Positions 2,998 to 12,340 of a stretch of DNA of 18,254 nt are shown one piece after another. This DNA is from Candidatus Bathyarchaeia archaeon. GTDB lineage: Archaea; Thermoproteota; Bathyarchaeia; Bathyarchaeales; Bathycorpusculaceae. The first letter of the stretch is position 1. Each line of letters starts with the position of its first letter. The stretch is from positions 1 to 18,254 of the forward strand of contig JBEKXL010000033.1 of the NCBI GenBank assembly GCA_049512075.1, read 5' to 3'. The translations under genes and the position numbers were made by a program. The notes beneath the pieces were generated by a model, which searched no databases, was not told the DNA's origin, and saw only the letters and a program-made list of their open reading frames with translations.

Positions 2998-3405
2998 GGT
3001 AGGAGTATTGGGGTTTAGGTTAGTGTTTAGCGTGCGCTAACGAGGAAAAGACGTTAAGCAACATTGTTTTGTAACAATTTCGCGCGCGCAGATGCTTTAA
3101 GCTTTTTTGTTTTAGGTGCTAAGCGCATGCGAGCTTTGGCAAAAGAAGATTGTGAAACTAGAGTAAATTAGACTGAAGATTTAGTTTAGCGCGAGCGCCA
3201 TGGGCAAGATAAGTTTACAGTATTCTATCCGTCAGTGTTTAAGCAATCTACTTGGTCGCAGATTGGAGAATAGCAGAGTTTAAAATTAGCATGTTAAACG
3301 CGCTGCCAAGTATGATAATAGTTGGAACCAAGATGTCGACGAACCAATCCGGTGGTCCCATCTGCCCCACAACCCCGAATAAGCCATGAAACTTAGTGCG
3401 CGGGC
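2974..3405. repeat. Cluster of TTAGCGCGCGC-type motifs
   Basis: TTAGCGCGAGC 2974, TTAGCGTGCGCTAA 3027, CGCGCGCGC 3081, GCGCATGCG 3123, TTAGCGCGAGCGC 3186, ACGCGCT 3298, TTAGTGCGCG 3393. Confidence 0.75.
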
Positions 3406-3851: not shown

Positions 3852-4003
3852 AAAACCCCTGTTTTGTCTGCTCGGAAGAGCAGCTCACGGCGAAGATAGA
3901 AAGCGCGCGCCAACCTTGTCTATAGGTATATTTTTCGCGCCTACGGAATGGACAACAAAAAAGGGCAAAGAGAAAACCAGCATTAAGAATGAAGACTGAA
4001 AGT

Positions 4004-4426
4004 ATGAAAAATGAAGACTGCAAATTCAAAGTATTGTTTGTATGTACTGGTAATGCATATCGTAGTCCAATATGTGAAGCACTTCTCAAAAAGCTTAGAC
4101 CAGATTTGGAAGTTGATTCTGCAGGGACGAAAATTGCACGTAAAATCACAAGAGAAGCAAGAGAATACTTGATGTCAGAAGATGCTATACAGTATCTTAA
4201 GCAGACACCTGAAAGCATTGACCGCAAACAATTGGAGCAGTATGATATTATTATTGCTATGGAACAGAGACACAGCGACTCAGTCTTAAAGAAATGTCCT
4301 GAATGCAAAAATAAAGTAGTTGTTTGGAATGTTCGGGATAAGATTCCCTTTTTGCATAGACGGACCGAGAAGATTAACAATCAGATGAAAAAGAATGTCA
4401 CCGAATATGCAGGGTCATTAGCATAA
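4004..4426 (+). CDS. Low-molecular-weight protein-tyrosine phosphatase / arsenate reductase family protein
   Basis: P-loop KVLFVCTGNAYRSP (CX5R), VDSAGT, YDIIIAME. In-frame ATGs at 3989 and 4004; 4004 preferred. Confidence 0.85.
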   Translation: MKNEDCKFKVLFVCTGNAYRSPICEALLKKLRPDLEVDSAGTKIARKITREAREYLMSEDAIQYLKQTPESIDRKQLEQYDIIIAMEQRHSDSVLKKCPECKNKVVVWNVRDKIPFLHRRTEKINNQMKKNVTEYAGSLA

Positions 4427-4891: not shown

Positions 4892-5144
4892 TTCGAAATA
4901 ACCATAGCGCGCGCTCTAATAAAAACTTGTCACTGTACCACGACAGCGTCTTGCCGTAGGGTTGTCGCGCGCGCGAGATGTCAAGAAGACTTCTCCACAT
5001 TACTCTGTCAATAGAACACTACTAGACAATGTGTTCTTATTGCTTGTGGAATAGCACCTGATTCAACCGTGCGCGCTTAAACACTGACGGATAGAAATCC
5101 ATAAATACAAGTTTTCACAAACCGAAATTAAGAATGAAAGAGGT

Positions 5145-5336
5145 ATGAAATTGGCAGGAGAACGTTTTGAAATATTCAATGATGCGGCAGGAAAATTCAG
5201 GTTCAGACTTAGAGCTCAAAATGGTGAAATCATAGCGGAAAGTGGAGCTTACGGATCAAAAGAGAGTTGTCAAAAAGGGATAGCATCAGTCAAGGAAAAT
5301 GCATCCAAAGCAGAAATAAAAGACTATACAACCTAG
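5145..5336 (+). CDS. YegP/DUF1508 family protein
   Basis: FEIFNDAAGKFRFRLRAQNGEIIAESGAYGSKESCQKGIASVK signature; TATA-like ATAAATA at 5101; the start may be TTG at 5151. Confidence 0.9.
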   Translation: MKLAGERFEIFNDAAGKFRFRLRAQNGEIIAESGAYGSKESCQKGIASVKENASKAEIKDYTT

Positions 5337-5381: not shown

Positions 5382-5570
5382 TAGCGCGCATGCTTGTTCC
5401 GAAATTGGCCTAAAATGGTTTTTATTCGTCCTTCATGATCTAGGGACGGCTTTGGGCTGCGTGTCTGTTCTTGATTTCTTTGGGGATTTTGTCTTCCTCG
5501 AACACAGGAGAAACGGGCAAACCGGAATTAAAACCATTTTTAACCATTTTAGGAACACGCATGCGCGCTA
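5382..5570. mobile_element. MITE-like non-autonomous element, 189 bp, 46-bp imperfect terminal inverted repeats starting TAGCGCGCATGC
   Basis: 5382-5427 and the reverse complement of 5525-5570 match at 39/46, with the first 12 nt identical. Repeated AAAATGGTT subterminal motifs; the outermost TA on each side may be a target duplication. Confidence 0.7.
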
Positions 5571-5672: not shown

Positions 5673-5870
5673 ATGAAGAAGAGTAAGAAATTGCATATTG
5701 TTTCTGGTTTAGTCATTTTGATTGGTATTTTGGTTATTGTAGATGGTATAGGAAGTATTTTGTTACCTGGAAATAACCATGACTTTATTTATGATTTTGA
5801 ACGTATAATTAGGGTTGTAGCAGGATTCTTGATTGTTATACTAGGTATTTATCTTGAAGTTAAAGAGTGA
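5673..5870 (+). CDS. Small 2-TM membrane protein, AT-rich
   Basis: 65 aa; basic N-terminus and two hydrophobic stretches. Confidence 0.7.
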   Translation: MKKSKKLHIVSGLVILIGILVIVDGIGSILLPGNNHDFIYDFERIIRVVAGFLIVILGIYLEVKE

Positions 5871-7119: not shown

Positions 7120-8898
7120 ATGCCGACCCGTCAACCAATCGTGTGCGTTCTTGGCCATGTTGATAGCGGCAAGACTTCTCTCTTGGACAGAATCCGTAAG
7201 ACCAGCGTCCAGGCGAGGGAGGTTGGAGGTATCACTCAGCACATAGGTGCAAGCTTTTTTCCGGTTGAGACGCTCAGTCAACTGGTCGGCTCCACGCTTT
7301 CGAGAGTTAAGGGTGAAATAGAGATTCCGGGTTTACTCATCATTGATACGCCGGGGCATGAGGCCTTCGCTAACCTTCGCAAAAGAGGTGGCAGCGTCGC
7401 GGACATCGCCATTCTTGTGATTAATGTTCTGCGAGGTTTTGAGGCTCAGACATATGAGTGTGTAGAGATTCTGAAGGCTCGGAAAACTCCCTTCTTGGTC
7501 GCTGCGAACATGATAGACCGCGTACCTGGCTGGAATTCCTACACTGATGCACCGTTTTCGAAGACGTATCCACAGCAAGATCCTTACGTTCGAGAGGATT
7601 TGGACAACAAGATATACGACGTTATCGGTGTTTTCTCTCGTTTGAGTTTCAAAACGGATCGTTTCGACAGGATAAAAGACTTCACGTCAACCGTGGCCAT
7701 CGTGCCCACAAGCGCAAAGACGGGTGAAGGCATATCCGAACTCATAACGGTTCTCATAGGGTTAGCGCAGCAGTATCTGAAGAAGCGTTTGCAGACAACG
7801 GAAGGGCCCGCTAAGGGCACGGTTCTGGAGGTTAAAGAGGAACCCGGACTCGGCTTGACAATCAACACTATAATATATGATGGGGTACTGCAGAAAGATG
7901 ACTTGATAGTTGTCGGCGGCAAGGAGAAACCGATTGTAACGCGTATACGGGCGATTCTGGTTCCCAAACCGCTGGATGAAATAAGAGATCCTAGAGAAAA
8001 GTTCTCCTCCGTCAATTCCGCGTCCGCCGCTGCAGGCATCAAAATCGTTGCGCCCGACATAGAAGGAGTCTTGGCAGGGGCTACTTTGTACGCTGTGCCG
8101 CAGGGCGAAAAACCCGAAAGGTACGCGAGGCTCATCGCCGAGGAAATCGAGAAAATAAGAATAGCGACTGACATTGACGGCATCGTCTTGAAGGCCGACA
8201 CACTGGGTTCGCTTGAAGCCATCGCGGACATTTTGAAACAAAACAACATCCCCATCAGACTAGCCGACGTGGGAGACATTTCAAAACGAGACATCATAGA
8301 AGCCTCCGTCGTGAAGGAGCATGAACCCCTGTACGGGGCAGTGCTGGCTTTCAACGTCAGAATCCTGCCAGACGCTGAAGAAGAGGCTGGAAGTAGAAGC
8401 GTTCAGGTTTTCCGTGAAAAGATAATCTATCACGTTATTGAAAACTATCTGGCGTGGTTCAAAGGAAAACGAGACGCCGGACTTGAACAGGACTTTGAGA
8501 CTCTCGTCAAACCTGCCAAACTCCAGGTGATGGACGGCTACGTTTTCCGAAGGGCGAAACCAGCGATTTTCGGCGTTGAAATCTTATCTGGGAGCATCAA
8601 ACCCAAGATTGCCCTTGTCAGGCAAAACGGTGAAGAAGTAGGCGAAATTCAGCAGATTCAGGACAAGGGGGAGGCATTGCCAAACGCTGAACAGGGAATG
8701 CAGGTCGCGATTTCCATGGATAAGCCGGTGTTTGGAAGACACATATTTGAAAAAGACGTGTTGTACGTGAAAGTGCCTGAACAACAGGTGAAGGTTCTCA
8801 TGACAACGTTCGCTGAAAGATTGACAGAGGGAGAACAAAAAGCATTGGACGAGTACGTCGGTGTCATGAGAAAGAAGGTGCCGTTCTGGGGAGCATAA
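7120..8898 (+). CDS. infB: Archaeal translation initiation factor aIF5B (IF-2)
   Basis: 592 aa; RQPIVCVLGHVDSGKTSLLD, GGITQHIGA, IDTPGHEAF, KADTLGSLEA. Confidence 0.97.
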   Translation: MPTRQPIVCVLGHVDSGKTSLLDRIRKTSVQAREVGGITQHIGASFFPVETLSQLVGSTLSRVKGEIEIPGLLIIDTPGHEAFANLRKRGGSVADIAILVINVLRGFEAQTYECVEILKARKTPFLVAANMIDRVPGWNSYTDAPFSKTYPQQDPYVREDLDNKIYDVIGVFSRLSFKTDRFDRIKDFTSTVAIVPTSAKTGEGISELITVLIGLAQQYLKKRLQTTEGPAKGTVLEVKEEPGLGLTINTIIYDGVLQKDDLIVVGGKEKPIVTRIRAILVPKPLDEIRDPREKFSSVNSASAAAGIKIVAPDIEGVLAGATLYAVPQGEKPERYARLIAEEIEKIRIATDIDGIVLKADTLGSLEAIADILKQNNIPIRLADVGDISKRDIIEASVVKEHEPLYGAVLAFNVRILPDAEEEAGSRSVQVFREKIIYHVIENYLAWFKGKRDAGLEQDFETLVKPAKLQVMDGYVFRRAKPAIFGVEILSGSIKPKIALVRQNGEEVGEIQQIQDKGEALPNAEQGMQVAISMDKPVFGRHIFEKDVLYVKVPEQQVKVLMTTFAERLTEGEQKALDEYVGVMRKKVPFWGA

Positions 8899-10325: not shown

Positions 10326-10348
10326 GTACAATGGTTTAGCGCGCGCGC
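10326..10348 (+). repeat. GTACAAYGGYTTAGCGCGCGC direct repeat, copy 1
   Basis: 19/21 identical to 12270-12290. Confidence 0.75.
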
Positions 10349-10508: not shown

Positions 10509-12158
10509 ATGGCTTACTTGACGACGACAGCGTCGGGACAACCAGTACTGGTTCTAAAAGAAGGTACGACACGAAACAGAGGAAGAGAAGCTCAGAGAAA
10601 TAACATAATGGCAGCACGCGTCATCGGTGAAGTGCTGAGAACGACTTTGGGACCTCGCGGCATGGACAAGATGCTCATCGACAGTCTCGGGGACATAACG
10701 ATAACGAACGATGGAGCAGCTATACTGAACGAGATAGAAGTTGAACATCCAGCGGCAAAGATGATGGTGGAAATCGCGAAGACGCAGGATGACATGGTGG
10801 GCGATGGAACAACCACTGCCGTAGTGTTGGCAGGCGAACTTTTGAAAAGAGCTGAGGAGCTTTTGGATCAGAACATTCATCCGACCATAATTGTGAGCGG
10901 CTACCGCAAGGCGGCACAGAAAGCAATGGAAACTATAAACAAAATTGCAATAGAGGTGGACATCGACGACAGGGCAACACTGAAGAAGGTCGCAGTGACG
11001 TCCATGGCAAGCAAAGCCGTCGGTCCAGCAAAGGAACACTTCGCAGATATAGCCATTGACGCCGTGAGAAAAGTGGCTGAAAAACGCGGAGACAAATGGG
11101 TCGCCGACATAGACAACATCCAAGTGATTAAGAAAACCGGAAAAAGCCTCTTCGAATCGCAATTAGTCCAAGGTCTAGTTATAGACAAAGAAGTCGTCCA
11201 CACGGGAATGCCAAAGAACGTCGAAAGAGCGAAAATAGCCCTGCTTGACAGCGCTTTGGAAATCGAAAAGACCGAGATCAGCGCAGAGATAAGAATACGC
11301 GATCCAAACCAGATGAAAGCCTTCCTAGACCAAGAGAACAAGATGCTGCAAGAAATGGTTGAAAAAATCAAGGCTTCAGGCGCCAACGTCGTTTTCTGCC
11401 AGAAAGGCATCGACGACATGGCCCAACACTTCTTAGCGAAAGAAGGAATACTCGCAGCCAGAAGAGTGAAACAGTCAGACATGGAGAAGCTGGCAAGAGC
11501 AACAGGCGGAAGAATAGTCTCAAACCTAACCGATCTAAGAACACAAGACCTAGGCATAGCAGGCCTCGTTGAGGAACGCAAGCTCGGCGAGGACAAGATG
11601 ATATTCGTCGAAAAATGCAAAGACCCCCGCTCAGTAGCAATCATTATACGAGCTGGCCTCGAAAGAATGGTTGACGAAGCCGAAAGAGCAATGACAGATG
11701 CCTTGTCAGTGGTCTCAGACGTCATAGAAAACAGCAAGATAGTCGCGGGAGGCGGAGCAGTAGAAGTCGAAGTGGCCAAAGAGCTGCGAAACTACGCTAC
11801 CGACATCGGCGGAAGAGAACAACTTGCTATAGAAACCTTCGCGGACGCCATCGAGGTAATACCGAAAACCTTGGCGGAAAACGCAGGATTGGAACCCATA
11901 GACATACTCGTAGAACTGAGAGCTGCCCACGGAAAGCCGGACGGACAAAACAAAGGAGTAAACCTCTTCACCGGAAAAGTCGAGAACATGCGCGACAAAG
12001 GCGTAGTCGAGCCCGTGATTGTAAAAGAGCAAGCGATAAAATCCGCGACAGAATCCGCAACCATGATAATACGCATCGACGACGTGATAGCATCCACAAA
12101 ACCGAAAGAGGGACCCGGAGGGAAACCGCCAGGCGGAATGCCTGAAGGCGAAGACTAA
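10509..12158 (+). CDS. ths: Thermosome subunit (group II chaperonin; alpha/beta not resolved)
   Basis: 549 aa; [36 protein letters not shown]. Confidence 0.97.
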
Positions 12159-12269: not shown

Positions 12270-12340
12270 GTACAACGGCTTAGCGCGCGCTGGTAGCCGT
12301 ACGCGCTAGGTCCAGGCCCTTTCTAATCAGAGCGCGCGCG
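12270..12340 (+). repeat. GTACAAYGGYTTAGCGCGCGC direct repeat, copy 2, plus two further motif copies
   Basis: 12270-12290; TACGCGCTAG at 12300; AGCGCGCGCG at 12331. Confidence 0.75.

Follow-up and report, generated by a model that had tools for sequence, protein, structure and literature searches.

The 189-bp stretch at positions 5382–5570 of the window, by which we mean the whole 18,254-nt stretch of DNA that was analysed, is a true multi-copy MITE of Bathyarchaeia genomes. This non-autonomous element arose by internal deletion of a ~484-bp cassette and is probably moved in trans by an IS5/IS1182-like transposase. A repeat finder, together with reading of the sequence, revealed 46-nt terminal inverted repeats at 5382–5427 and 5525–5570, which are complementary at 39 of 46 positions (85%) and are separated by a 97-nt spacer. 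A binomial estimate gives a probability of ~1e-10 that arms pairing this well would occur at any place in the window. The 19-nt tip has two sites in the window (0.01 expected), both of which are the ends of the element. These arms had been described in the sequence-only reading and were borne out, as was a repeat of 10-bp period at 5531–5550, which is mirrored at 5401–5420 and is kept in 26 of 26 aligned copies. The features of the element are as follows.

5382–5570, no strand assigned: the whole 189-bp MITE, from TA to TA including the flanking/terminal TA; a further 25 copies align with it over 187 nt or more at 70–95% identity.
5382–5427, plus strand: left terminal inverted repeat of 46 nt, whose outer ~25 nt are common to the autonomous IS; conservation 0.94.
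5401–5420, plus strand: left subterminal 10-bp repeats GAAATTGGCC TAAAATGGTT, the mirror of the right ones; kept across copies and not in the IS ends.
5440–5502, minus strand: short frame FEEDKIPKEIKNRHAAQSRP, 20 codons plus stop, a remnant of the C-terminus of the winged-helix/4-Cys gene (alignment with L006, L074, L069, and L027).
5525–5570, minus strand: right terminal inverted repeat of 46 nt; conservation 0.92.
5531–5550, plus strand: right subterminal 10-bp repeats AAACCATTTT TAACCATTTT, from reading of the sequence; kept across copies.

With its 189 bp and 46-nt arms, the element falls within the size range of MITEs (less than ~300 bp, with terminal inverted repeats). It has no transposase of its own, and its interior contains only the 20-codon remnant of a non-transposase gene. 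The window is archaeal and carries genes for the thermosome (10509–12158), aIF5B (7120–8898), and a DUF1512 protein. The element lies 46 nt past the stop of a DUF1508 gene (5145–5336) and 103 nt before a 65-aa ORF (5673–5870), and its insertion breaks no reading frame in the window. When the window was searched by tblastn, neither a homologue of the IS transposase nor the winged-helix gene was detected. The window also contains a second inverted repeat (3214–3244 and 5075–5105; 31 nt, 87% complementary, 1830 nt apart), whose 5075–5105 arm adjoins a GCGCGC at 5071 and shortly precedes the DUF1508 gene; no copy of this repeat was found among the at least 114 loci. A tandem 22-nt direct repeat (3979–4022, 82% identical) is located at the start of a low-molecular-weight phosphatase ORF (3989–4426), and the ORF at 209–2227 (672 aa) fuses a holin-like 4-TMS domain (Phage_holin_4_2) to a type I phosphodiesterase domain.

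The tip was searched for in the GTDB set, with one genome per species, by using the pattern TAGCGCGCATGCNTGTTCC, which demanded TA at one end. The 19-nt tip was present in at least 114 genomic stretches; among those listed, 107 of 114 were in MAGs labelled Bathyarchaeia or Bathyarchaeota, and the remaining seven comprised two Promethearchaeati contigs, one Nitrososphaeria, one 'uncultured archaeon', and three bacterial records. For at least one of the bacterial records (L025), the similarity to the family was confined to the search pattern. Pairing of the tips with up to 3 mismatches gave at least 60 non-redundant elements of 155–1975 bp (59 in the loci, plus the window copy), and the mode of their length among the matches listed was 188–189 bp. 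BLAST against the listed loci aligned at least 25 other copies, from 10 MAGs, to the window copy over 187–192 columns. Among the matches listed, the closest copies were L085 and L113 (95.2%), L054 (94.2%), and L070 (92.1%), and the most distant full-length copies (L003, L072, L043, and L049) were ~70% identical. The full-length copies are dispersed in unrelated contexts in these 10 MAGs. Elements of the other size classes (155–179, 205–244, ~300, and ~484 bp) have only the 46–52-nt ends in common. A search of a plasmid collection in distant search mode gave no match to the MITE. No locus overlapped the neighbourhood of the window MITE; elsewhere in the window only the thermosome and ABC-transporter genes gave matches, at 64–76% identity.

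The sequence-only reading had proposed a MITE-like element and had named a single-copy repeat as the observation that would speak against it. The repeat proved to be multi-copy, with at least 25 full-length relatives. With a single copy in the 18-kb window, the repeat might have been taken for an inverted duplication confined to this locus, but the full-length copies elsewhere and the occurrence of the tip in at least 114 places refute this explanation, to which we assign practically no weight.

Some copies of the family are associated with other elements. In L049 the MITE adjoins the left end of the IS described below; the nested insertions in L049, L027, L062, and L079 had no interpretable target. 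An IS110-family transposase gene (DEDD_Tnp_IS110 and Transposase_20; L024, 975–2019, minus strand) begins 29 nt inside an inverted-repeat tip. This tip is cut off at ~22 nt, which looks like the insertion of an IS110-type element into a family end.

To the extent that 26 aligned copies can be compared, conservation is concentrated in the ends. The mean values were 0.94 for the left and 0.92 for the right terminal inverted repeat and 0.73 for the interior, and they reached 0.985 in the GCGCGC tip and 0.96 in the inner repeat block. Covariation in the helix was absent from these copies (the score was 0.038, whereas the shuffles averaged 0.042 and 480 of 500 equalled or exceeded the observed value), and the positions mismatched between left and right were also mismatched in 19–26 of the 26 copies. 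Since the ends are conserved and do not covary, each end is kept as a sequence, as a protein-binding site would be, and not as a hairpin. It is highly improbable that the stretch encodes a structured RNA or acts as a regulatory hairpin instead of being a mobile element. The strand folds into a long hairpin (−81 kcal/mol, z = −8.7), as any inverted repeat would, but no Rfam family reached the gathering score in the window and no compensatory changes were found in the 26 copies. The unrelated contexts of the copies and the decayed coding remnant in the interior also argue against a functional RNA.

Four elements of 481–485 bp with the same 46-nt ends were found among the matches listed (L006, L074, L069, and L027). 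This 484-bp cassette contains a single ORF of 124–125 aa, which is intact in three of the four and frameshifted in L069. The 189-bp copies align with the cassette over its first 47 nt and its last ~140 nt and lack the intervening ~295 nt. The minus-strand frame in the window corresponds to the tail of the cassette ORF in the same frame (FE... versus FEKGGYCKQ...), with the cysteines lost. The alignment shows that the MITE arose from the ~484-bp cassette by an internal deletion of ~295 bp. The earlier suggestion that the interior frame is a remnant of the parent gene was thus correct, although the parent gene encodes a 125-aa winged-helix/4-Cys protein and not a transposase. Further copies of the cassette gene were found by tblastn in L088, L087, and L094, and C-terminal remnants of it in five MITEs.

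Pfam gave weak winged-helix matches for the cassette protein (HTH_20 at 25.8 bits, below its cut-off of 27, and, in the L027 copy, HTH_5 at 23.7 bits, above its cut-off of 22). Its AlphaFold model had pLDDT values of 80–87 in the N-terminal winged helix and 54–59 in the C-terminal third, and Foldseek matched it to MarR/PadR/ArsR-type regulators with E values from 3e-4. In 30 aligned sequences, three cysteines (C97, C105, and C112) are invariant and C117 is present in at least 90%. The pairwise dN/dS among three DNA copies of the gene was 0.16–0.21, indicating that the cassette gene is under purifying selection. Relatives at E ≤ 1e-3 accounted for 477 of 480 candidate clusters (90% identity); many of these clusters are on contigs of 0.5–2 kb, and their sources label them as hypothetical or as Lrp/ArsR/PadR regulators. 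A search for longer, fused forms of the winged-helix protein detected none, which is weak evidence.

Mobile insertion cassettes (MICs) are exemplified by MIC231, which is moved by IS231A in Bacillus cereus. Like them, the 484-bp parent is small and, in L006, L074, L027, and L069, combines IS-type ends and a passenger gene with the lack of a transposase. It differs from them in that the passenger is a very widespread DNA-binding protein under purifying selection and that the cassette ends carry subterminal repeats missing from the IS.

Elements of 1084–1097 bp located between the same tips carry a 328-aa ORF in L047, L039, and L051, and the ORF is split by a frameshift in L058. L060 and L028 likewise carry the 328-aa ORF, partial IS copies being found at contig or locus ends. 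Pfam assigned the ORF to DDE_Tnp_1 (PF01609; 1e-23, 84 bits against a cut-off of 23) and DUF772 (PF05598; 5e-10, 39.7 bits against 23.1). The best NCBIfam models were IS1182 (149 bits against 270) and IS5_4 (99.7 against 140); because both scores are under the cut-offs, the curated family level is reached for neither IS1182 nor IS5. Candidates related to the transposase at E ≤ 1e-3 numbered 794 of 5134, and the best 120 of the 794 are 84–91% identical and 319–337 aa long, with the named ones called 'transposase' or 'IS5 family transposase'. A single-ORF element of ~1.1 kb with terminal inverted repeats that encodes DDE_Tnp_1 with an N-terminal DUF772 resembles the IS5/IS1182 group, and the IS translations contain a C-terminal Y-x2-R-x3-E-x6-K stretch, which we take to be an IS5/IS1182 feature. 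This IS differs from the group in scoring below the curated cut-offs of both families, in its unusual GC-rich palindromic tip TAGCGCGCATGC, and in its hosts, which are Bathyarchaeia. A second transposase relic, frameshifted and 40–46% identical to the IS protein, is present just upstream of the intact IS in L047 (318–1279), which indicates more than one lineage of the family in one genome.

The ends of the IS are the same as the MITE ends over 23–25 nt (TAGCGCGCATGCNTGTTCCNAAATT; 23/23 to 25/25) and then diverge, and they lack the AAAATGGTT repeats. Since only the outer ~25 nt are common to both, the MITE is not a simple deletion of the IS. The IS and the 189-bp MITE share host MAGs, as the pairs L039/L075 and L051/L033 illustrate. 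This ~1.09-kb DDE_Tnp_1/DUF772 IS was the only kind of transposase-bearing element with the same tip among the matches listed, and no transposase-bearing element with the full 46-nt ends was detected among them (80 loci with 2-kb flanks). Because the comparison covers the at least 114 listed loci, 80 of them with 2-kb flanks, the real partner could be another autonomous element that has the full 46-nt ends. We infer that the inner 20 nt of the MITE ends, which contain the 10-bp repeats, belong to the cassette and MITE lineage alone and are under selection for mobility. It is likely that these 20 nt are bound by a second factor, for which the winged-helix protein of the cassette is the obvious candidate.

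TA was present at 46 of 81 unbiased partner ends; 25 ends were one substitution away from TA and 10 differed at both bases. A partner within 1.3 kb was missing for 44 of 125 ascertained ends. No direct repeat was detected just outside the TA (2 of 59 at k = 2 versus 3.7 expected, and zero from k = 5), and no base preference was seen beyond it. The sequence-only reading had proposed to look for the empty site in related genomes. BLAST of the 200–250-bp outer flanks and an all-against-all comparison revealed no clean empty site among the at least 114 loci and the window; three candidate pairs were obtained (L018/L029, L041/L080, and L101/L026), and none of them is a clean empty site because the homology was one-sided in all three. 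Since the tip is palindromic, the sequence would read identically whether TA was duplicated, bases within the GC run were duplicated, or nothing was. Thus, of the earlier claim that the element duplicates TA, the frequent TA at the ends is confirmed, whereas the duplication is unproven. A 155-bp MITE (L111, 301–455) and the left end of the full IS (L084, 301 onward) are located at the same position in two MAGs, next to a flank that is 98.8% identical; this site is either a hot spot or a case of in-place replacement.

The dispersed motif had been read as TAGCGCGCGCTA and had been ascribed to the joining of two element tips. The window contains no exact TAGCGCGCGCTA, although there are five one-mismatch matches (0.02 expected), and the unit that is dispersed is the 8-mer GCGCGCGC. 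Fourteen runs of (GC)4 or longer and five of (GC)3 were counted in the window.

Starts of GCGCGCGC runs in the window: 387, 2594, 3082, 3903, 4432, 4907, 4967, 6133, 10339, 12283, 12332, 13229, 17419, and 17459.

Twelve of these 14 runs lie between ORFs by our reading, and from 2.5 to 6.2 kb there is one in nearly every gap between small genes. Overlapping GCGCGC matches in the window numbered 34, as compared with 4.8 ± 2.1 in shuffles. Solo runs in the 319 kb of the loci and the window comprised 69 (GC)4 and 5 (GC)5, where an estimate from composition expects 3–4. The neighbours of the solo (GC)4 were A on the 5′ side in 40 of 69 and T on the 3′ side in 35 of 69. TA stood to the left of 15 of the 69, to the right of 16, and on both sides of 2. 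This low frequency of TA argues against solo motifs as simple footprints of TA-flanked elements, and likewise against random insertion of elements into solo motifs. We found no literature on GCGCGCGC in archaeal intergenic DNA. A 21-nt direct repeat (GTACAAYGGYTTAGCGCGCGC, 90% identical; 10326–10346 and 12270–12290) flanks the thermosome gene in the window and consists of the GC motif with a longer common flank.

These results bear on the family to which the element had been assigned, namely that it is an IS630/Tc1/mariner-type MITE that duplicates TA and whose excision or tip-joining makes the dispersed TAGCGCGCGCTA. The frequent TA, the difference of most other dinucleotides from TA by a single base, and the lack of any longer direct repeat outside the TA are consistent with this assignment, and a footprint of 4 nt per tip would give TA-GCGC-GCGC-TA. 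However, the enzyme encoded between the same tips is of the DDE_Tnp_1/DUF772 type, which is IS5/IS1182-like, and no IS630-type family was among its Pfam and NCBIfam matches. In addition, footprints should start with TA on both sides, which is rarely observed, and joining of the whole tips gives (GC)6 and not (GC)4; (GC)6 was not seen among the runs counted. The last two points make tip-joining a weak explanation for the origin of the motif. Taken with the type of the enzyme and the absence of exact TAGCGCGCGCTA from the window, they make the IS630/Tc1/mariner reading very unlikely.

It is also conceivable, and we regard it as unlikely, that the element starts further in, at or near ATGC, and was inserted into a pre-existing dispersed GCGCGCGC with duplication of a few bases within the GC run. 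The element would still be a MITE, and a 4-bp GCGC duplication would turn TA-GCGCGCGC-TA into TAGCGCGC–element–GCGCGCTA, so that both the GC tips and the TA would derive from the target. Duplications of 4 bp are typical of the IS5 group. Such insertion would fit the very high frequency of solo GCGCGCGC, the tendency of its 5′ neighbour to be A and of its 3′ neighbour to be T, and the presence of different family members at the same site in L111 and L084, which suggests a preferred site. In L080, a solo TAGCGCGCGC is located exactly where the 96%-identical flank in L041 meets the MITE tip. The other flank of L041/L080 is not homologous, however, and this pair is therefore not a clean empty site. 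The L026 site that matches the MITE tip of L101 has no GC run, although the homology on the far side is lost there too. Furthermore, TA is much commoner at the element ends than beside solo motifs, and the GCGCGC tip is as highly conserved as the rest of the repeat. Some IS target short palindromic repeats, for example IS1397 in REP/BIME, and insertion into a dispersed palindromic motif would be similar; the motif here is only 8 nt long, and the TA statistics are against simple targeting.

A link between the dispersed GCGCGCGC and the element is suggested by the homology between related MAGs, which stops exactly at GC motifs or at element tips. L013 and L014 have a common MITE that is followed by unrelated segments of ~1.07 kb, after which the homology returns at TAGCGCGCTA and GAGCGCGCGCTA, and in L034 a solo 46-nt end abuts GCGCGCGCTA. 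The segments between the MITE end and the GC motif of this one orthologous locus (L013, 2207–3280; L014, 2212–3275) are gene-bearing. A 113-aa ORF is present between two tips 1975 bp apart in L038 (2001–3975), and the L013 segment, judged by eye, appears to code for a protein resembling it. L013, L014, and L038 suggest that larger cargo may be moved or swapped at the element ends.

On the reading that we prefer, a non-autonomous MITE derived from the cassette, the ~1.09-kb IS5/IS1182-like IS would supply the 328-aa DDE transposase that acts in trans on both the MITE and the cassette and moves them by cut-and-paste. The two would borrow this transposase through the shared outer ~25 nt, TA-GCGCGCATGCNTGTTCCNAAATT, and the winged-helix protein of the cassette could bind the inner 10-bp repeats as a second factor. 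The parent is a MIC-like passenger cassette, and the probable driver is the IS5/IS1182-like IS. We infer mobility and target duplication from the copies; neither a transposition event nor an empty site was seen among the loci compared. A bolder version of this scheme, which we think rather doubtful, is a split two-component transposon in which the IS would give the DDE transposase, the cassette would give a winged-helix/4-Cys protein that binds the 10-bp repeats and recruits or licenses the transposase, and GCGCGCGC would be a preferred site of insertion or recombination.

PIF/Harbinger elements are eukaryotic relatives of IS5, and their Tourist-type MITEs match the autonomous partner at the ends only. 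PIF/Harbinger depends on an additional protein, which binds DNA at subterminal repeats, and by analogy the winged-helix protein could play this part here. The two systems differ in that a single PIF/Harbinger element encodes both proteins, the one that binds DNA being Myb-like, whereas the candidate helper here comes from a cassette that is separate and non-autonomous. The element also resembles IS630/Tc1/mariner MITEs in being small, in its inverted repeats, and in the frequency of TA at either end; the associated transposase is of another family, and the TA duplication is the unproven one discussed above. Prokaryotic MITEs derived from IS630/Tc1/mariner (Stowaway-like), such as MITEEc1, are mentioned in the text of a census of MITEs in 8,220 archaeal genomes, a text that is without Bathyarchaeia (PMC11602168). 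This census may already list the family (PMC11602168). Our literature search, which covered article texts, found no description of Bathyarchaeia MITEs or of this IS family. As far as found, the family is previously undescribed, but it is of an ordinary MITE kind.

Bathyarchaeia are abundant, uncultured archaea of sediment and peat, and to our knowledge their mobile DNA is almost undescribed. Many copies of the family sit at contig ends, indicating that it is common enough to break assemblies, and studies of MAGs should mask or annotate it. Databases label the cassette gene 'Lrp/ArsR regulator' or 'hypothetical', whereas it is in fact the cargo of a mobile element, and the GCGCGCGC motif merits a study of its own. 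If the two-component reading is true, archaea would have in the cassette protein a counterpart to the Myb-like helper of PIF/Harbinger, but one with a parasitic element to itself. If the idea of a helper protein holds, the family would serve as a simple model for asking how elements that are non-autonomous gain access to a transposase.
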